This document shows positions 5,439 to 50,945 of a stretch of 64,000 nucleotides of DNA, in pieces. Positions within the stretch are counted from its first letter, which is position 1. Each line of letters opens with the position of its first letter. Under the pieces are notes generated by a model. It was given only the letters and a program-made list of their open reading frames with translations. It made no database searches and was not told where the DNA came from. The translations under genes were made by a program, and so were the position numbers. The stretch is from assembly GCA_963746775.1 (NCBI GenBank), contig CAVVCK010000001.1:275050-339049 (forward strand), written 5' to 3'. This DNA is from an uncultured bacterium. Its GTDB lineage: Bacteria; Patescibacteriota; JABMPQ01; CAVVCK01.

Positions 5439-5510
5439 CGCGGGGTAGAGCAGTGGAAGCTCGTCAGGCTCATAACCTGAAGGTCGCCGGTTCGAATCCG
5501 GCCCCCGCAA
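5439..5510 (+). tRNA. Initiator tRNA-fMet (CAU).
   Basis: CGCGGGG...CUCAUAA...GGUUCGAAUCCGGCCCCCGCAA. It is nearly identical in architecture to the E. coli initiator tRNA, including the C1xA72 mismatch and three G-C pairs in the anticodon stem. No CCA is encoded. Confidence 0.85.
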
Positions 5511-5598
5511 TGGATAAAATTCCAAACTGCAAGCACCAAACTCCAATTAAATTACAAATATTTTGGAATTTGTAATTTGTTTTTTGGAATTTTTTTGA

Positions 5599-5672
5599 GC
5601 CAGGGTAGCTCAGTTGGTTAGAGCACGAGAATCATAAACTTGAGGTCGTGGGTTCGAATCCCACCCCTGGTA
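5599..5672 (+). tRNA. tRNA with CAU anticodon. This is elongator tRNA-Met or the lysidine-modified tRNA-Ile2.
   Basis: Cloverleaf GCCAGGG/CCCTGGT acceptor (G1:U72 wobble), D arm tagctcagttggttagagc, anticodon loop aUCAUAa, and T arm gtgggttcgaatcccac. Confidence 0.75.
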
Positions 5673-5702
5673 TAGAAGTTAAAATTAAAAACATTTTACA
5701 AT

Positions 5703-5766
5703 GGAGCCGTAGCTTAGCTGGTTTAAAGCGATCCGATGTTACATCGGATAGATCGTGAGTTCAATC
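5703..5766 (+). pseudogene. Degenerate tRNA-Asp-like copy 1. The 5' acceptor and D arm match tRNA-Asp, the anticodon arm is replaced by a perfect 8-bp hairpin, and the T arm is decayed.
   Basis: ggagccgtagcttagctggtttaaagcg is identical to the first 28 nt of the tRNA-Asp at 6102. It is followed by atccgatg-tta-catcggat and then agatcgtgagttcaatc, a decayed form of agatcgtgggttcgaatcc. Confidence 0.55.
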
Positions 5767-5769
5767 AAA

Positions 5770-6042
5770 ATGAAAATGAAAAATGGTTATGTTTATATTT
5801 TAAAACGCTCTAACGATACCTATTATATTGGCAGTACTAAAAATATTAAAGATAGAATAAATAGACACAAATCTGGTAGAGTTAAATCTACAAAAAATTT
5901 ATTACCTATAATACTAGTTTTTTATCAAGAGTTTGATACATTATTAAAAGCTAGAAGAATTGAATATAAATTAAAAAAATTAAAAAGTAGAAAAATTATA
6001 GAAAAAATTATTAAAGACAATATCATTACAATGGAGCCGTAG
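5770..6042 (+). CDS. Small stand-alone GIY-YIG nuclease-domain protein (UPF0213/YhbQ-like). The track starts it at GTG 5755; ATG 5770 is more likely.
   Basis: GYVYILKRSNDTYYIGSTKNIKDRINRHKSG...E matches the GIY-YIG core (GxYxYIL, YIGxT, R..xH, distal E). It is about 90 aa, as in YhbQ-type proteins. Confidence 0.75.
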   Translation: MKMKNGYVYILKRSNDTYYIGSTKNIKDRINRHKSGRVKSTKNLLPIILVFYQEFDTLLKARRIEYKLKKLKSRKIIEKIIKDNIITMEP

Positions 6043-6093
6043 TTTAATAGTTTAAAGCGGTCCGATGTCCATCGGACAGATTGTGAATTAAAT
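6033..6093 (+). pseudogene. Degenerate tRNA-Asp-like copy 2.
   Basis: ggagccgtag + tttaatagtttaaagcg + hairpin gtccgatg..catcggac + agattgtgaattaaat. Relative to copy 1 the hairpin carries compensatory a:t to g:c changes. Confidence 0.5.
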
Positions 6094-6101
6094 ATTATAG
6101 T

Positions 6102-6176
6102 GGAGCCGTAGCTTAGCTGGTTTAAAGCGCCTGCCTGTCACGCAGGAGATCGTGGGTTCGAATCCCATCGGTTCCG
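6102..6176 (+). tRNA. tRNA-Asp (GUC).
   Basis: Acceptor ggagccg/cggttcc, anticodon loop cuGUCac, T arm gtgggttcgaatcccat, and discriminator G. No CCA is encoded. Confidence 0.85.
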
Positions 6177-6188
6177 TATTTTTAGATT

Positions 6189-10256: not shown

Positions 10257-11471
10257 TTATTCATACCTTAGTGCATCTATCGGATTCAACTTTGCTGCTC
10301 TTCTGGCTGGATAATAACCAAAGATCACCCCGATAGCCACCGAAACACCAAAAGCCAACAAAACCGAGGAAGTAGTAATAGTGGTAGTGGTATTTAAAAA
10401 TGTTTTAACTAAATAAGAAGCCAAAAAACCCAAGGAAATTCCAATCACTCCACCCAAAAAAGTAAGCATAATAGATTCAGCTAAAAATTGTTTATTAATA
10501 TCACTACTCTTAGCACCAATAGCTTTCCTTAAACCAATTTCACGAGTGCGCTCTGTCACTGAGGTCAACATCATATTCATAATACCAATACCCCCAACCA
10601 ATAAAGATATGCCAGCAATTGCTCCCAGTAAAATTGTCAACGTACCAGTTACTGAAGAAGCCATGGATACTAGATCGGCCATATTACTTACATTAAAATC
10701 TGCTTCATCAGCATTGCTTATTTTATGAAGACTAAGTAAAAGCGAAGTAACATCTGTTTGAGCCTGATCCATTTTATCTTGGCTCGCTACTTTAACATTA
10801 ATACTGGATAAATATTTATCACCACTAAAATAGCGCTGCAACACATCAAGCGGTATAAAAACACTATCATCAGAACTATTAAAACCGCTACCCGTAGCCT
10901 CTATAACTCCTATCACTTTAAAGCTTAGGCCATTTACTTTAATAGCTTGACCAAGTGGATTTACTCCCTCTCCAAATAAATCGATTACTACATTCGCTCC
11001 TAAGACTGCTACTTTAGAAGAGCTTTTAATATTGCTTTGGGTTATAAAAATACCCCGGGAAAGCTTTATATTTCTCACTGTTTGATATTCTGGATAAACA
11101 CCATTAATAGAAGCATTGGTATTATTTTTTTTGGCAGTAATTTGTTCTCGGCTAGAAGCTTCAGGAGAGACTGCCTCTATACTAGTAATTTTTTTAATAG
11201 CTTCAGCATCATCTAAAGTTAAACTTTGAGCTGTTCCCTGACCAGACATCACCGGCCCAAAACTTCTCTGTCTACCAGAACTAATAGTCAATAAATTAGC
11301 TCCATTTGCTTCTATACTCTGCGTGATAGAAGTGCTGGTTCCCTGTCCAATTGAAACTAGGGCTATCACAGAAGCAATACCAATCACTATACCTAAAATA
11401 GTTAGGGCTGATCTAGCTCTATTGGAAACAATGGCTGAATACGTTTCTTTTATTAAATCTTTGTATAACAT
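10257..11471 (-). CDS. macB: ABC transporter permease, FtsX/MacB family.
   Basis: N-terminal TM helix, large periplasmic domain, and a C-terminal 3-TM FtsX-type bundle. It is the last gene of the adaptor-ATPase-permease operon. Confidence 0.8.
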   Translation of the reverse strand: MLYKDLIKETYSAIVSNRARSALTILGIVIGIASVIALVSIGQGTSTSITQSIEANGANLLTISSGRQRSFGPVMSGQGTAQSLTLDDAEAIKKITSIEAVSPEASSREQITAKKNNTNASINGVYPEYQTVRNIKLSRGIFITQSNIKSSSKVAVLGANVVIDLFGEGVNPLGQAIKVNGLSFKVIGVIEATGSGFNSSDDSVFIPLDVLQRYFSGDKYLSSINVKVASQDKMDQAQTDVTSLLLSLHKISNADEADFNVSNMADLVSMASSVTGTLTILLGAIAGISLLVGGIGIMNMMLTSVTERTREIGLRKAIGAKSSDINKQFLAESIMLTFLGGVIGISLGFLASYLVKTFLNTTTTITTSSVLLAFGVSVAIGVIFGYYPARRAAKLNPIDALRYE

Positions 11472-36681: not shown

Positions 36682-37257
36682 CTATTTTTCCCTTATTTTA
36701 AGGTCATAGGACACCTCTTCAATCTTTCTCAAATTCCTCTTAGCCTGATCATATTTCCCTCTATGTTTACCCAACAAATCAAATTTAACCAATTCTCCTA
36801 CAACGCTTTGTACCGCTTCCTGATATTCTCCAATTTTGTTATTATCACCCTTTGTTACTGCTTGAACTGCTTTTCTAACAATTTCTCCAGTAAAATCACA
36901 TATACCCCCTATTAGGTCATTAAAATCAGCAGTAACACTTGATTTAAAATCAACTTGACCAGTTTTTAGAAATTCATAAAACATAGAAGCCTCGATAAAC
37001 TCTTCTAAACCTTCTTTATATGAACCTTCATTTTTTAATCTTTTTTCTTTCTCAAATAATTTTTCTAAATTTATAATTTTATTTTCCGTATCTTTTAATA
37101 TTTTCTCTGCTTCCTTTAGTTCGTCTCTATGCAATGCAAAAATAGCCTGTTTGGAATTTCTTAAAATATCACGCGAGTCAACAATGATTTGGTCACGAAA
37201 TTTAGTGTAATTTCTATAGGAAGTAAGTAGCTCGTTAAACAAAACTTTATTCAACAT
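36682..37257 (-). CDS. Translin-family-like helical protein (tentative).
   Basis: Residues (a) ...VDSRDILRNSKQAIFALHRD...AEKIL, (b) EGLEEFIEASMFYEFLKTGQ, (c) DLIGGICDFTGEIVRKAVQAVTKGD and (d) C-terminal NLRKIEEVSYDLKIREK echo Translin motifs, including the DLTGEL-type segment and the C-terminal K(V/I)EEVVYDL. Confidence 0.4.
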   Translation of the reverse strand: MLNKVLFNELLTSYRNYTKFRDQIIVDSRDILRNSKQAIFALHRDELKEAEKILKDTENKIINLEKLFEKEKRLKNEGSYKEGLEEFIEASMFYEFLKTGQVDFKSSVTADFNDLIGGICDFTGEIVRKAVQAVTKGDNNKIGEYQEAVQSVVGELVKFDLLGKHRGKYDQAKRNLRKIEEVSYDLKIREK

Positions 37258-37280: not shown

Positions 37281-38009
37281 TTATTCGAAATTAAAACTAT
37301 CAATCATACTATCAAAATCCCCTTTATACTTATTATAATCAGCTTCAGCTCCAGAATAAGAAATAGTATAAACATCGTCTCCTTGAAAAAAATAAACTCG
37401 TATAGACATACCTTCTTCTTCAAAATTAGTTTCTTCTTTTATAGCCTTAAGCCCAGCTACAGCTATTTGATTAGAACTCTTTGGCTCCCCTGAAAATAGA
37501 TGTCCCTCTCTGGCCCAATCTTCCAAAGATAAATTCCTAGGATTACCTTGCACTAATATTTCTACTTTTATCCCCTCCACTAAATCAATATCACTTATTT
37601 TATCAACTTTATTATTTAGGAAATAGACTATCCAGCTATCTTCCCTATTTTCCGGACCCTCAAACCAGCTCTGTGGGTATTTTATATTATAATTATAGAA
37701 AGTATTTTTATAAATTTGCCAATCTTTTGTTTTTTCATCTACGTTTCCAACCTTATCTGAACTAACATTTTCTTTACTGTCCTCTCTTGATGGTTCATTA
37801 TTTTTATCTTCTGTCTTTTTTTCTTCTACTTGTTCTTTGCCTGCCTGGGTAATTTCACCTTGTGCTCCCTGTTCTTTTTCTAATTTTATTTCTTCCCTAT
37901 GGTACCAATAACTATAGGCAAAAATAGCTATTATGATTAAAGCTCCTAAAATAGATGTTAAAATTATTATTAAATTTTTATTATTTTTTATAAACATGGT
38001 TATTTCCAA
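37281..38009 (-). CDS. Membrane-anchored hypothetical protein with an extracytoplasmic domain.
   Basis: N-terminal TM helix, charged linker, and a beta-rich C-terminal domain. Confidence 0.45.
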   Translation of the reverse strand: MEITMFIKNNKNLIIILTSILGALIIIAIFAYSYWYHREEIKLEKEQGAQGEITQAGKEQVEEKKTEDKNNEPSREDSKENVSSDKVGNVDEKTKDWQIYKNTFYNYNIKYPQSWFEGPENREDSWIVYFLNNKVDKISDIDLVEGIKVEILVQGNPRNLSLEDWAREGHLFSGEPKSSNQIAVAGLKAIKEETNFEEEGMSIRVYFFQGDDVYTISYSGAEADYNKYKGDFDSMIDSFNFE

Positions 38010-38035
38010 TTAAAATTTTTTGTGTGAAAGAAATT

Positions 38036-38100
38036 TCTGCCATGGGCGGGAAATTCTTCTACGTTCCCCATGGGAACGGTCCCTGCTGCCCATGGCAGCA
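38036..38100. repeat. REP-like GC-rich palindromes with a CCATGGG core (left flank of the transposase remnant).
   Basis: tctgccatgggcgggaa, gttccccatgggaac, and tgctgcccatggcagca. Local GC is far above the window average. Confidence 0.6.
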
Positions 38101-38106
38101 ATTTTT

Positions 38107-38683
38107 TTAATTTATAGAATTTACTCTAATACCCTCTAATGCCTTCATATCTACTACACCTTCATTGTTTTCTTCCACACTAATCACACTACGCACTATT
38201 TCTTGAACTTGTTTTTCACCAAACTTCTTGACCGTATAATAATAACTAGAAAAAGAATTTTCTTTTAATTCTGCAAAGGATTGCCAATAACATAGCCAGT
38301 TACCTTCCAAGATACTTCTTCGTTTTTAATATAAAAAACTTTAGTGCTTTGCCAAAATGTTTCATAAGGAACTTGGTAAAGTTTTCTGTATTCTCGTGAA
38401 GTTCCACTGTGAAGTATATTTTTCAATTGAGTCATCTTTCTGCCATCATCTAAATGAAATTTTAATGAAAATGGTTTAAATTAATGCTAAAAGCTAAAAT
38501 AGGAACTTTTAAAACTTGTTTTACTTGTTTAATTTTATTTAAAATAATCTGTTTTTGGGGTATTTCTTTGAAATAAGGATAGTGAGTAAAAGTAGAAGTG
38601 GTCAGAAAATAATAGGTATTATCTGGCCAGCGAATTTTATGCCGTTTAGGGAGAGGTTGTTTCATTTTTTTATCTTCAATCAA
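38107..38683 (-). pseudogene. IS200/IS605-family HuH tyrosine transposase (RAYT-like), disrupted by at least two frameshifts.
   Basis: Three frames together read MKQPLPKRHKIRWPDNTYYFLTTSTF...ILAFSINLNHFH / LKFHLDDGRKMTQLKNILHSGTSREYRKLYQVPYETFWQSTKVFYIKNEEVSWKVTGYVIGNPLQN / ...FAELKENSFSSYYY. This matches RAYT/TnpA motifs (NHxH HuH, WQ, YI..NP, WSSY). Confidence 0.65.
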
Positions 38684-39264
38684 TAATTTCTGCCATGGGC
38701 AGAAGAAACTCCCGCCATGGGCGGGATAGAAGAAATATTCATACTAAATTCACACCCGCAATAATGCTGTCTGTATAAATTATATTTTTTACTTAACTCT
38801 ACTGATTTTCTAAAACCATCTTTCTTTTTAAAATCTATATCTAAAAATTTTATTTTAAACTCATTACCTAATTTATCCCCTATCTTTTTAATTTTTGCAA
38901 AATTTTTATAAGGTGAAATAGTCAAAGTTGTTGTAAAATAATCAAAACCTTCTCTGCTTGTTTCCTTAGCAACTTCCCTCAATCTTATCTCATAACATCT
39001 TAAACATCTCCTACCACCCTCTAGTTCTTTTTCCAAACCTCTCACCTGCTCTAACCAATTTTGATGATTATAATTTGCTTCAATTAACTTAATATTTATT
39101 TCTTTACAATATTTTTTTGTCTCTTCTAGTCTCTTTAAATATTCTTTTTCAGGATAAATATTGGAGTTACAAAACATACCAGTCACTTCATATTCTTCAC
39201 TTAATCTTTCAATAGAAGCAGTGGAACAAGGAGCGCAGCAGATATGGAGTAGAACTTTTTTCAT
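38680..39264 (-). CDS. queH: Epoxyqueuosine reductase QueH (DUF208), with a C-terminal extension encoded by the REP palindromes.
   Basis: LLHICCAPCS N-terminal motif and C-terminal YRQHYCGCEFS. The last ~20 codons (MNISSIPPMAGVSSAHGRNY) are read through the GC-rich palindromes. Confidence 0.8.
   Translation of the reverse strand: MKKVLLHICCAPCSTASIERLSEEYEVTGMFCNSNIYPEKEYLKRLEETKKYCKEINIKLIEANYNHQNWLEQVRGLEKELEGGRRCLRCYEIRLREVAKETSREGFDYFTTTLTISPYKNFAKIKKIGDKLGNEFKIKFLDIDFKKKDGFRKSVELSKKYNLYRQHYCGCEFSMNISSIPPMAGVSSAHGRNY
38688..38726. repeat. REP-like CCATGGG palindromes (right flank). They are embedded in the 3' end of the queH ORF.
   Basis: ttctgccatgggcagaa and tcccgccatgggcggga. Confidence 0.6.
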
Positions 39265-39464
39265 AGTCTATTGTTTTTTCAAATTTTACAATTAGCTTGC
39301 TATCTTAAAAGAAATTCATAGAAATACATGGAAATTAAGAAATTTATTGTGGCTCCTCACATACGTGGTTAACCACAATTAATTTCTATGAATTTCGGCC
39401 AAAGGCCATGTTTTTATTAGTTTCAACTTTTTAAAAACACTCAAGATACTAATAACACCATAAC

Positions 39465-41831
39465 TTACTTTTCTAGCACTTCTCTTAATACCTCATTCAT
39501 ATTTTCCACAAAAACAAACTTTATATCTCTCTGCACTTCTTTGGGTATATCAACTAAATCTTTTTTATTACTGGCCGGTATGATAACTTTTTTCATTCCA
39601 GCTCGATGGGCTGCCAAAACTTTTTCTTTCAATCCACCTATCTCCATGGCCTTACCGCGCAGAGTTACCTCTCCTGTCATAGCAATTTGTCTATTTATTT
39701 TCCTATTGGTTAGCAGTGATACTAAAACACTAGCAATAGCTAATCCAGCTGAGGGTCCATCTTTGGGAATAGCCCCAGATGGTACGTGAATATGCACATC
39801 ACTATTTTTATAAAATTCATCCTTAATACCTTCCTTGGCCGCCCTATTCTTGGCATAGGAAAAAGCTGCCTGGGCTGATTCTTTCATCACTTTGCCCAAA
39901 TGCCCAGTCAAAATTAATTGGCCCTTACCTGGCATTTTAATAGCTTCAATTGGTAATATCTCTCCTCCAGCCTGTGTCCAGGCCAATCCCATAACTACTC
40001 CTACTTCATTTTTCTTTTCTTTGGATGTTGCCTGATATTTTATGGGGCCTAAATAATCAGATAAATTATTACTAACCTTAAATTCTTTTCCCTCATTGCC
40101 TGATATTTTTTTAGCTACCTTGCGACAAATCGCAGCAATTTCTCTTTCTAAATTTCTCACTCCAGCCTCACGCGTATATTCCTCAATAATCTTATACATA
40201 GCAGATTTATTAATGTCTAGTTGTTTTTTATCTAGCCCATGTTCTTTCAATTGTTTAGAAAATAAATATTTCTTAGCAATTTGATATTTTTCATCATAGG
40301 TATAGCCAGAAAATTCAATAATTTCCATACGATCTCTTAGAGCTGGAGGTATGGTGTCCAGCATATTAGCAGTAGTTATAAACATAACATCAGACAAATC
40401 AAAAGGTGACTCTAAATAATGATCAGAAAATTCACTGTTTTGTTCTGGATCTAGCGCTTCTAATAAAGCTGAGGAAGGATCACCCCTAAAATCTGCCCCT
40501 ACTTTATCTATTTCATCTAACATAAATACTGGATTATGAGTACCAGCATTGTTAATACCTTGAATTATTCTGCCTGGCATAGCCCCAACATAAGTTCTCC
40601 GATGCCCTCTTATTTCCGCTTCATCACGAATACCCCCTAGACTCATCCTAATAAATTTACGTCCCAAGGCATGAGCTATAGATTTTCCAATAGAAGTTTT
40701 ACCAGTACCCGGAGGTCCGACAAAACATAAAATGGGTCCTCTTATTTTACCTACCATTTTCTGTACAGCTAAATACTCTAGTATTCTTTCTTTAACTTTT
40801 TTTAAGCCATAGTGATCTTTATCTAAAATTTTCTCAGCACTTCTAATATCTATTTTACTTTTTGATTTTCTACTCCAAGGTAAATCTACCAACCAGTTGA
40901 GATAGGTTCGAATATATGATATTTCAGGACTAAAAGAAGGCATAGCCACCATTCTTTTTAACTCTTTCAATGCCTTTTTTTCAGTCTCAGTAGGCATTCC
41001 CGCTTTTTTAATTTTCTTTTCCAGTTCATCATTCTCTGATTCTCCTCCTACTACCCCTAATTCTTTTTCAATTGATTTCATTTGTTCACGCAAAAACATT
41101 TCTTTTTGCATTTTACCCAATTCTTCTCCTGTATTTGATTCTATTTTCTTAGCTATTTTCAATATTTTTATTTGCCGTGATAATGATTCACTTACTTTCT
41201 GTAATTTATCTTGAATATCCATAGCTTCTAGAATCGCCTGCTTCTCCTGTAATTTAAAATTAACATGCAAGGCAATTAGATCAGTCAAGCGCCAAGGATT
41301 TTTAATATTAACGATTAAGAGTAAAACATCCAGGGGAACAGTAACACCTAAATTTACACATTCTTTAAATAAATTTATTACCGAATACATTAGAGCTTCA
41401 ATTTTTTCTGTTTTTTTATTATTTATTTCTGACTGTAGTTCATACTTAACTTTAAAAAAAGGGGTTTCTTGAATATATTCTCTAATTTTCATTTTAGAAA
41501 CACCTTCAATAAGTATTCTAATGGTATCATCGGGTTGTTTTACTATTTCGCGTATTTTAGCAACTACGCCGAATCTATATAAATCTTTTTCTTTAGGATT
41601 ATCTTTTTCTGGATCCATTTGAGTTACAAAACAAGCCATCCTGCCGTGTTGCATAGCAAAATCAATAGCCTTAATAGATCCTTCACGCTGAACTGCTACT
41701 GGTATCGCTATATGCGGGAAAATAACCATATCTCTAATAGGAACTAAGGGCATTTCTTGTAAATTTCTTGGTCTATGGCCTTTACTAAAGAATCCTTGTT
41801 CTTGGCTTTTATCTGTTTGTTTTTTATCCAT
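39465..41831 (-). CDS. lon: ATP-dependent Lon protease.
   Basis: LON N-domain, AAA+ GPPGTGKTS, and protease domain PKDGPSAG with catalytic Ser/Lys. Confidence 0.9.
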   Translation of the reverse strand: MDKKQTDKSQEQGFFSKGHRPRNLQEMPLVPIRDMVIFPHIAIPVAVQREGSIKAIDFAMQHGRMACFVTQMDPEKDNPKEKDLYRFGVVAKIREIVKQPDDTIRILIEGVSKMKIREYIQETPFFKVKYELQSEINNKKTEKIEALMYSVINLFKECVNLGVTVPLDVLLLIVNIKNPWRLTDLIALHVNFKLQEKQAILEAMDIQDKLQKVSESLSRQIKILKIAKKIESNTGEELGKMQKEMFLREQMKSIEKELGVVGGESENDELEKKIKKAGMPTETEKKALKELKRMVAMPSFSPEISYIRTYLNWLVDLPWSRKSKSKIDIRSAEKILDKDHYGLKKVKERILEYLAVQKMVGKIRGPILCFVGPPGTGKTSIGKSIAHALGRKFIRMSLGGIRDEAEIRGHRRTYVGAMPGRIIQGINNAGTHNPVFMLDEIDKVGADFRGDPSSALLEALDPEQNSEFSDHYLESPFDLSDVMFITTANMLDTIPPALRDRMEIIEFSGYTYDEKYQIAKKYLFSKQLKEHGLDKKQLDINKSAMYKIIEEYTREAGVRNLEREIAAICRKVAKKISGNEGKEFKVSNNLSDYLGPIKYQATSKEKKNEVGVVMGLAWTQAGGEILPIEAIKMPGKGQLILTGHLGKVMKESAQAAFSYAKNRAAKEGIKDEFYKNSDVHIHVPSGAIPKDGPSAGLAIASVLVSLLTNRKINRQIAMTGEVTLRGKAMEIGGLKEKVLAAHRAGMKKVIIPASNKKDLVDIPKEVQRDIKFVFVENMNEVLREVLEK

Positions 41832-50480: not shown

Positions 50481-50492
50481 GTTTTTTTCTTT

Positions 50493-50513
50493 CCCCTCCT
50501 TACCAAGGAGGGG
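50493..50513. repeat. GC-rich hairpin cccctcctt-acc-aaggagggg (left flank of the DUF559 remnant). It overlaps the holA ribosome-binding site.
   Basis: Perfect 9-bp stem. It is related to the element at 50914-50943. Confidence 0.5.
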
Positions 50514-50537
50514 TAGGGGTGGTTTACAAATGTGATT

Positions 50538-50883
50538 TCAAATACCTTTTAGTACTCTTTCTAAATCATAATATATTTCTAGATTGGTAAAGCGTAAAAT
50601 ATTAAATCCTATAGATTTTATATATTCTTCTCTTTTATTATCATATTCTCGAGCGTAATTATCAATAAAATGAGAATCACCATCTAGTTCTATAATAAGT
50701 TTTTCTCTAGGACAACAAAAGTCTGTTATATATTTACCAATACTATACTGTCTTCTGAATTTATAACCTAGTATCTTTTTTTCCTTTCAATTCATACCAT
50801 GACAATATTTCAGCTGGAGGCATATTACTTATTAATCCTTGTCTTTTCTTTTTTATTTCATTCTTATTGAATATTTTGGTCAT
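50538..50883 (-). pseudogene. DUF559 / Vsr-like PD-(D/E)xK endonuclease domain gene with a single frameshift in an A7 homopolymer.
   Basis: Frame 1 gives MTKIFNKNEIKKKRQGLISNMPPAEILSWYELKGKKDTRL*. The shifted frame gives GYKFRRQYSIGKYITDFCCPREKLIIELDGDSHFIDNYAREYDNKREEYIKSIGFNILRFTNLEIYYDLERVLKGI*. Together they match the DUF559 consensus (LR..MT.aE..LW, kFRRQ.piG.Y.vDF.c, ElDG..H, vlRf.N.ev). Confidence 0.7.
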
Positions 50884-50913
50884 CTATCTTAAATCGCAAG
50901 AACATTGTGAAAA

Positions 50914-50943
50914 CCCCTCCTACCTCCCCTTGGTAAGAGGAGG
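50914..50943. repeat. GC-rich imperfect hairpin cccctcctacc...ggtaagaggagg (right flank), just after the polA stop.
   Basis: Shares cccctcct(t)acc and aggagg arms with 50493-50513. Confidence 0.5.
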
Positions 50944-50945
50944 AA

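Follow-up and report, generated by a model that had tools for sequence, protein, structure and literature searches.

A decayed, probably REPtron-like unit with a divergent RAYT-type gene and footed hairpins at the 3′ end of queH in a Patescibacteriota genome

The locus and the limits of the unit

In an uncultured Patescibacteriota bacterium (contig CAVVCK010000001.1), queH, the gene for epoxyqueuosine reductase, runs at its 3′ end into a compact unit formed by a broken transposase-like gene and GC-rich palindromes. We analyzed this unit in a window of 64 kb (G+C 33%) and regard it as probably a decayed REPtron-like unit, in which a divergent gene of the RAYT type (tyrosine transposase associated with repetitive extragenic palindromes, REPs) is bracketed by its own recognition hairpins. 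Most of the characterization of RAYT/REP systems comes from proteobacteria and from further bacteria whose genomes are larger. Around the unit, all genes lie on the minus strand in the order Lon, QueH, a 670-bp gap, a 242-aa membrane protein and a 191-aa open reading frame (ORF). The gap is without a long ORF and contains all five GC-rich palindromes, three on the left side (38034–38052, 38062–38078 and 38084–38100) and two on the right (38688–38704 and 38710–38726), where an earlier reading of the DNA letters (hereafter the sequence-only reading) had placed them.

The limits of the unit were set by comparison with L001, one of 88 related loci, of which 13 come from genome assemblies and 75 from metagenomes. 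Homology between the window and L001 starts at (T)CTTCTAT and stops at GTAGAAGA; the genomic context of L001 differs, and the unit therefore corresponds to window positions 38055–38733. It measures 679 bp in the window and ~714 bp when intact, with the termini TCTTCTA...TAGAAGA. Because the hairpin feet face outward, the unit ends are imperfect inverted repeats of ~50 nt, seen as the 53-nt repeat I1 that pairs 38054–38106 with 38682–38734 at 72% complementarity. No obvious target-site duplication was found at the ends, where short AT-rich flank matches (ATT; TAAA) are unconvincing. The features of the locus are collected in Table 1.

Hairpins of the unit

The palindromes are largely built on one core. 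GCCATGGGC occurs four times in the 64 kb, every time at the unit locus, against 0.11 copies expected; the sequence-only reading had based all five palindromes on gccatgggc, which holds for these four, whereas the fifth has the core CCCCATGGGA. Folded as single-stranded DNA, both flanks are much more stable than shuffled sequence (z −4.7 to −6.0). A covariance model, R1, was built from 26 footed hairpins of other genomes, with the window sequences excluded. Scanned over the window, R1 recovers the two outer hairpins strongly and the two inner hairpins weakly (19.3 and 17.3 bits). It does not detect the other CCATGGG sites (21288, 42716 and 63054), whose number is as expected by chance. The outer 5′ hairpin is closed by a T-A pair where C-G is usual, a compensatory change, and a hairpin identical to the outer one on the 3′ side is present in L001 to L006. 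The extra hairpin just outside the unit spans 19 nt on the gene strand, CCCGCCCATGGCAGAAATT, and equals the 5′ doublet minus the segment between two CCCATGGC cores. Its decay is more advanced in L005 and L006, and we read it as a probable relic.

A pseudogene with three deletions

Translated in three frames, the minus strand between the hairpins gives ...NHFH*, next ...GYVIGNPLQN* and next ...ELKENSFSSYYY.... A tblastn search with the intact homologue P0001 yields three collinear segments in three frames, 38665–38456 (91% identity), 38471–38268 (90%) and 38280–38116 (78%), and no second copy of the gene in the 64-kb window. These segments, a REP_Tyr_transpos match (E=2e-10) and a fold like that of PDB entry 4ER8, both detailed below, bear out the proposal that a RAYT/TnpA-like HuH protein is spread over three frames. 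The start supported by homology is an ATG at 38665, 14 nt past the queH stop. The ATGA overlap once proposed between the transposase start and the queH stop does not hold: the TGA (38682–38680) overlaps only a mechanically called TTG.

The lesions were mapped by nucleotide alignment with L005, L006 and L001. L005 and L006 are orthologous loci: they share queH upstream and the downstream flank with the window, and they carry an intact gene (protein identity 86%). Compared with this intact locus, the window gene is destroyed by three deletions of 1, 25 and 9 nt, in keeping with the at least two frameshifts that had been suspected. A lesion thought to lie at 38300–38320 and to be a possible homopolymer error is in fact the 25-nt deletion at 38279/38280 between CCTTT repeats, which takes out K-H-R-E-V-S-T just past the catalytic tyrosine; K132, H133 and E135 are invariant in the family. 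The window copy thus retains the NHFH motif and the catalytic tyrosine and has lost K-H and the reading frame. Programmed frameshifting is rejected, since invariant residues are lost in the second lesion, a deletion of 25 nt. With the gene dead through three deletions, the hairpins of the window are therefore relics and immobile.

Table 1. Coordinates of the unit, its parts and lesions, and the neighboring genes in the window.
Feature	Position	Strand	Evidence or remarks
Whole unit: pseudogene with, on each side, an inner hairpin and beyond it an outer footed hairpin	38055..38733	minus	Gene orientation, 5′ part: TCTTCTA-[TCCCGCC cat GGCGGGA]-GTTTC-[TTCTGCC cat GGCAGAA], then gene; 3′ part after gene: [GCTGCC atg GGCAGC]-AGGGAC-[CGTTCCC atg GGGAACG]-TAGAAGA
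Outer footed REP-like hairpin, 5′ side of gene	38705..38733	minus	TCTTCTA-[TCCCGCC cat GGCGGGA]-GTTTC; R1 42.6 bits, E=4e-10
Inner hairpin without foot, within last queH codons	38688..38704	minus	TTCTGCC cat GGCAGAA; R1 partial match 17.3 bits
Pseudogene, RAYT-like HuH/Y1 protein (intact homologues 194 aa)	38107..38665	minus	NHFH HuH motif kept; catalytic Tyr in GYVIGNPL
1-nt deletion, T run TTT to TT on gene strand, directly after HuH motif; frameshift	~38464..38465	minus	Alignment with L005, L006 and L001
25-nt deletion between two CCTTT direct repeats; frameshift	38279/38280 (junction feature 38275..38280)	minus	Nucleotide alignment
9-nt deletion at 3′ end, original stop codon region lost	38115..38116	minus	Nucleotide alignment
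Inner hairpin without foot, 3′ side of gene	38084..38100	plus	TGCTGCC cat GGCAGCA; R1 partial match 19.3 bits
Outer footed REP-like hairpin, 3′ side of gene	38055..38083	plus	TCTTCTA-[CGTTCCC cat GGGAACG]-GTCCC; R1 38.1 bits, E=9e-9
Degenerate extra hairpin just outside unit, no TTCTA foot	38034..38052	unstranded	Sequence reading; R1 only 8.2 bits
queH (epoxyqueuosine reductase)	38680-39264	minus	Pfam QueH 230 bits, residues 4-175 of 194
Lon	39465-41831	minus	788 aa, intact
242-aa membrane protein	37281-38009	minus	
191-aa ORF	36682-37257	minus	Slot filled by equal-length Translin-domain protein in syntenic relatives

Fusion of the unit to queH

Because the unit lies right at the 3′ end of queH, translation of QueH runs on through the two 5′ hairpins, and the gene takes from them its stop codon and the codons of its last 17 residues. 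After ...CGCEFSMNI the window protein continues with SSIPPMAGVSSAHGRNY, a foreign tail of 17 codons (38733–38683) that covers the outer and inner hairpins; the stop at 38682–38680 is also encoded by a hairpin. The closest QueH orthologues (~66–77% identity) mostly end in CGCEFSIN[E/K/N], so the MNI of the window matches the native end. The sequence-only reading had credited queH with about 20 foreign C-terminal codons; the hairpin-encoded tail stands, at 17 codons, once MNI is counted as native. L005 and L006 carry the same queH-hairpin fusion, and since it lies there beside an intact gene in the orthologous locus, the insertion predates the inactivation of the gene. The hairpins may also have a secondary role, such as an influence on how stable the end of the queH mRNA is.

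Upstream of queH, the lon-queH intergenic region (39265–39464, minus strand) contains a 15-bp inverted repeat, GAAATTCATAGAAAT / ATTTCTATGAATTTC, that encloses a second stem, ATTGTGG...CCACAAT. The region folds as RNA with z=−4.3, has no Rfam match and could be a lon terminator or a queH leader.

The protein family and its relation to RAYTs

A large protein collection holds 30 intact homologues of ~194 aa, P0001 being the closest (86% identical); the sole name given to any of them is ‘hypothetical protein, Candidatus Falkowbacteria’. Their invariant positions are H65 and H67 (HuH), a tryptophan, Y125 (the catalytic tyrosine), N129, K132 and H133, and the invariant stretch around the tyrosine reads G-Y-x-x-G-N-x-L-K-H-x-E. 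The family motifs Y-I-x-x-N-x-x-K-H and P-F-S-S-[YF] parallel Y-I-Y-I-N-P-V-K-H and P-F-S-T-F of E. coli TnpA_REP. When the three frames are joined, the reconstruction matches the NCBIfam REP_Tyr_transpos model (NF047646) with 40.6 bits and E=2.2e-10, which upholds the assignment to the HuH transposases in a hidden Markov model (HMM) search. The IS200 transposase model (NF033573) gives the same reconstruction 15.3 bits and E=0.017, against a cut-off of 55, and the relatives that match this model score 20–30 bits. Pfam Y1_Tnp (PF01797) is matched at E<0.01 by 22 of 29 members (best 8e-7), and a precomputed PF01797 hit exists for three members.

The link to TnpA_REP is also seen in the predicted fold. 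The AlphaFold model of P0001 has a pLDDT of 91.6, and its best Foldseek match in the PDB is 4ER8_A, E. coli TnpA_REP with a REP hairpin (E=9e-8, TM-score 0.57/0.66); the IS608, ISDra2 and IS200 transposases follow in the same search at E 4e-5 or weaker. A PDB sequence search with the family profile gave nothing relevant, so that the connection to 4ER8 comes through the fold search only. Searched against 1.84 billion representatives, the profile matches 272 clusters (E≤0.001). At the distant end of this set stand bona fide REP_Tyr_transpos proteins that score 82–111 bits, above the cut-off, whereas three other close members sampled (P0031, P0050 and P0076) score 39–52 bits; the family is thus a small divergent RAYT offshoot. 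All but two of the named genome matches are Patescibacteria or unclassified bacterial metagenome-assembled genomes. The assembly titles name Patescibacteria, Parcubacteria, Falkowbacteria, Jacksonbacteria or Saccharibacteria in nine cases, ‘uncultured Gammaproteobacteria’ in two and ‘bacterium’ in three. No relative was found on viral contigs, and nothing relevant was found in the literature on RAYT or REPIN together with Patescibacteria or the candidate phyla radiation. The gene family is a small, unannotated, mostly Patescibacteria branch of putative RAYTs with its own non-canonical hairpin signature, newly defined here.

The hairpin signature across related loci

The hairpins recur with the gene. 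In 50 of 94 loci, a pattern search that required only TCTA and, directly after it, a perfect GC-rich stem no shorter than 6 bp found footed hairpins no more than 250 nt from the gene; 48 distinct stems occur (the counts contain a few redundant loci). Per kb, there are 1.16 footed hairpins close to the gene, 0.034 farther off and 0.015 in reversed-sequence controls. Two features that the pattern did not require are conserved nonetheless: a T ahead of TCTA, giving TTCTA, in 104 of 108 hairpins, and a 3′ GT in 95 of 108. The family signature is accordingly written as 5′-TTCTA, a covarying stem of 6–7 bp, a clade-specific loop and GT-3′. In the commonest layout the feet point outward (upstream on the plus strand, n=34; downstream on the minus strand, n=36); the reverse orientation (n=18 and 17) often forms head-to-head doublets.

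Over the related loci, R1 returned 78 matches. Pairing in their alignment reaches 98.8% of the cells, and double compensatory changes are seen at each of the seven pairs. The covariation score of this alignment, which was itself fitted to the model, was reached by none of 500 shuffles, and slid controls were 43–58% paired. G-U pairs are nearly absent (~9 of 497 cells), which points to a constraint on DNA rather than RNA. The loop type tracks the protein clade, with CAT in the clade of the window and TTTA or CTTG elsewhere, as would be seen under co-evolution of the protein with its hairpin. L035 (13 in 6 kb), L042, L048, L030 and L025 have further hairpins, tandem or dispersed, at a distance from the gene.

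Two of the related loci show hairpins in further arrangements. At positions 10610–11261 of L072, an outward-footed pair of family-type hairpins brackets an unrelated 180-aa ORF without a Pfam hit, next to the RAYT-like unit, and apparently frames another gene. At positions 1–4300 of L035, three ORFs are interspersed among footed hairpins (thirteen in 6 kb) and form with them a hairpin-rich accessory island around the RAYT-like gene; from their translations, by eye, we take these ORFs to be a 23S-rRNA-intervening-sequence-protein-like, a 393-aa reverse transcriptase-like and a PemK-like gene.

Genomic contexts and mobility

The unit is found in different surroundings. In L001–L004, an intact gene 80% identical to that of the window (P0002) lies with the same hairpins between the flavokinase and riboflavin synthase genes, and none of the genes that flank the unit in L001 was found in the window. 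The overall interpretation of the sequence-only reading is largely right, and the hairpins are confirmed as cognates of the gene by their recurrence around this 80%-identical copy in another context. Syntenic relatives of the window (Lon, QueH, x, membrane protein, Translin) are without the unit. The CAT-loop clade comprises 17 loci that form three small syntenic groups only, the remainder lying in unrelated contexts, so that at least 10 unrelated contexts are represented. A scan by just two peptide patterns found one locus per assembly in 13 assemblies, and the window has one. This pattern of contexts fits a RAYT-like single-copy gene with patchy inheritance.

Beside these contexts, three syntenic loci hold in the slot of the unit an unrelated, very acidic ORF of 173–181 aa without a Pfam hit (L095, 3530–4075; L096, 3537–4058; L097, 1236–1757). 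L001 also carries, at 821–1162, a 23S rRNA intervening-sequence protein gene (PF05635) a few kb from the RAYT-like unit, which the ORF beside the unit in L035 presumably resembles, as compared by eye.

Proposed function and alternative explanations

We consider it likely that 38055–38733 is a decayed REPtron-like unit, an apparently single-copy, divergent RAYT/TnpA_REP HuH-tyrosine gene bracketed by its own recognition hairpins. The unit accounts for the 670-bp non-coding gap, the mis-called ORF start and the 17-residue foreign QueH tail of the window. In the intact relatives, by homology and fold and as for E. coli TnpA_REP, the protein would bind the folded hairpin on single-stranded DNA and would read its unpaired foot. 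The strand would then be cut and rejoined through a covalent phosphotyrosine intermediate, and the hairpins, possibly with the whole unit, could be copied or moved as a consequence.

Several observations weigh against this assignment. The scores of the reconstruction (40.6 bits) and of intact P0001 (40.7 bits) stay below the NF047646 cut-off of 80, both reach 22.4–22.5 bits on PF01797, whose gathering score is 23, and the activity of the proteins of this branch is predicted from homology and fold. Canonical REPs carry a 5′ GT[AG]G tetranucleotide at the stem foot (PMC6006769). The foot described here is TTCTA on the 5′ side, and GTAG appears solely on the complementary strand, 3′ of the stem; this GTAG of reversed polarity may be related to the canonical foot or be a coincidence. 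Copies away from the gene are few in relatives (17 in 498 kb), and the R1 scan of the 64 kb gave nothing else significant, so that further copies of the palindromes, which the sequence-only reading had led one to look for, are absent off-locus in the window and dispersed in some relatives. The label ‘REP-like’ therefore rests on the association with the gene and on the dispersed copies in relatives. Finally, a whole unit with conserved ends in different contexts is as IS-like (insertion sequence-like) as it is domesticated-RAYT-like.

This last point leads to the main rival, that the unit is a decayed autonomous IS200-like insertion sequence (transposase-only IS200/IS605) that moved whole, and not a domesticated RAYT with REPs. 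The unit looks the part: its ~714 bp approach the length of IS200, and it combines a single Y1 HuH gene with hairpins at both ends. It also stands complete, its ends conserved, in two unrelated contexts at 80–86% protein identity and in at least 10 contexts across the clade, and it is absent in syntenic relatives. The protein itself speaks otherwise, as it scores higher on the RAYT model than on the IS200 model and is nearest to TnpA_REP in fold. So do the unit ends, which are inverted repeats with outward feet, whereas in IS200/IS605 the left hairpin differs from the right one and both lie on one strand. Add to this the extra hairpins without a gene, tandem and dispersed, in L035, L042 and L048, and a single locus in each assembly and in the window, and an IS200-like origin becomes improbable. 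Between the two, the branch might represent a compact REPtron that still moves whole, as a ~0.7-kb gene with hairpin inverted repeats that would stand between autonomous elements of the IS200 type and domesticated RAYTs, with a foot 5′-TTCTA...GT-3′ of polarity opposite to GT[AG]G and with hairpin pairs that also bracket unrelated genes in some genomes (L072); we put this forward as a speculative proposal that is itself rather unlikely.

Two further explanations would remove the pseudogene or the recognition hairpins altogether, and we give little credence to either. If the gene were intact in the organism, the frameshifts would be sequencing or assembly errors, and the 1-nt lesion does fall in a short T run. 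The 25-nt deletion between CCTTT direct repeats and the 9-nt deletion are not of the homopolymer type, however, the long neighbors Lon (788 aa) and PolA (919 aa) are intact, and 87% of the window is taken up by ORFs of 100 aa or more, all of which argues for a real and fairly recent pseudogene and makes errors a very improbable cause. The hairpins could instead be host regulatory elements, terminators or mRNA stabilizers of queH and its neighbors, with the HuH gene nearby by accident. A terminator-pattern scan of the window returned five sites against 1.2 expected, all of them hairpins of the unit, and a role of REPs as RNA elements is reported for other bacteria (PMC3733652). Yet hairpins with the same foot accompany the gene over dozens of unrelated contexts, with a loop type that follows the protein clade, the scarcity of G-U pairs argues for a constraint on DNA, and the R1 scan found no comparable hairpins at the other gene ends of the window; an incidental neighborhood is thus scarcely credible next to the REPtron-like reading.

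Other features of the window

At the gathering thresholds, Rfam identifies three tRNAs only in the window. Two tRNA-Met genes and a tRNA-Asp gene are clustered at 5439–6177, and a 17-nt perfect palindrome between tRNA genes, TCCGATGtaaCATCGGA (5732–5752), is a chance match to the loose hairpin pattern. A second small decayed element is located at 50481–50945 on the minus strand, between polA and a 318-aa ORF that we take to be holA-like. It contains a frameshifted DUF559/Vsr-like endonuclease gene (Pfam DUF559 3.7e-28 on the two-frame reconstruction) and has inverted GC-rich hairpins on both sides; the left one reads CCCCTCCttaccaaGGAGGGG-TAGGGG, and the right one is nearly its mirror image.

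Significance and comparison with known systems

A family that is annotated only as ‘hypothetical’ and lives mostly in ultra-small genomes has here a clear and testable DNA partner, the TTCTA-foot hairpin, whose loop co-varies with the clade. It offers a simple system in which to ask how HuH/Y1 enzymes read an unpaired foot and whether the step from a mobile IS200-like element to a domesticated RAYT runs through mobility of the whole unit.

The closest known counterpart is the REPtron of E. coli TnpA_REP (4ER8), the best structural match of the family. Both have HuH and a single catalytic tyrosine, the motifs W-Q, Y-I-x-x-N-x-x-K-H and P-F-S-[ST]-[FY], GC-rich hairpins that bracket the gene, mostly inverted, and, in what the scans covered, a single gene copy in each genome. 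Unlike TnpA_REP, with which it shares 18% identity in the structural alignment, the family reaches half of the NCBIfam cut-off score and has ~50 extra C-terminal residues, predicted to be helical. The hairpin foot is 5′-TTCTA with 3′-GT in place of the 5′-GT[AG]G of E. coli REPs; compared with REPs and bacterial interspersed mosaic elements (BIMEs) of that species, the stems are short and perfect (6–7 bp), the loops are 3–4 nt long and dispersed copies are few or none. The hosts also differ from typical RAYT hosts: they have small AT-rich genomes, whereas a 2018 survey of complete genomes reported non-IS TnpA_Y1 genes mainly in larger genomes, with Patescibacteria unmentioned (PMC6006769).

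With IS200 the unit shares a length of ~0.7 kb, one Y1 HuH gene, hairpins at both ends, varied contexts and the lack of an obvious target duplication. It departs from IS200 in its inverted ends, a weak IS200 HMM score (15 bits), an apparently single copy and the solo hairpins of its relatives. Subclasses 2.6 and 3 of TnpA_Y1 (Quentin et al. 2018, PMC6006769) likewise combine RAYT-like genes with flanking hairpins that have no GT[AG]G; compared by description, they differ from this family in being reported from Bacteroidetes and from Planctomycetes/Acidobacteria and in their weaker structures. The fusion to queH, in turn, resembles the REP insertions inside genes described by Di Nocera et al. 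(2013, PMC3733652), in that a REP-type palindrome is translated in a host protein, in this case at the QueH C-terminus. It differs in that the hairpins at queH belong to a gene-carrying unit and replace the native stop codon, and do not lie in an internal loop.

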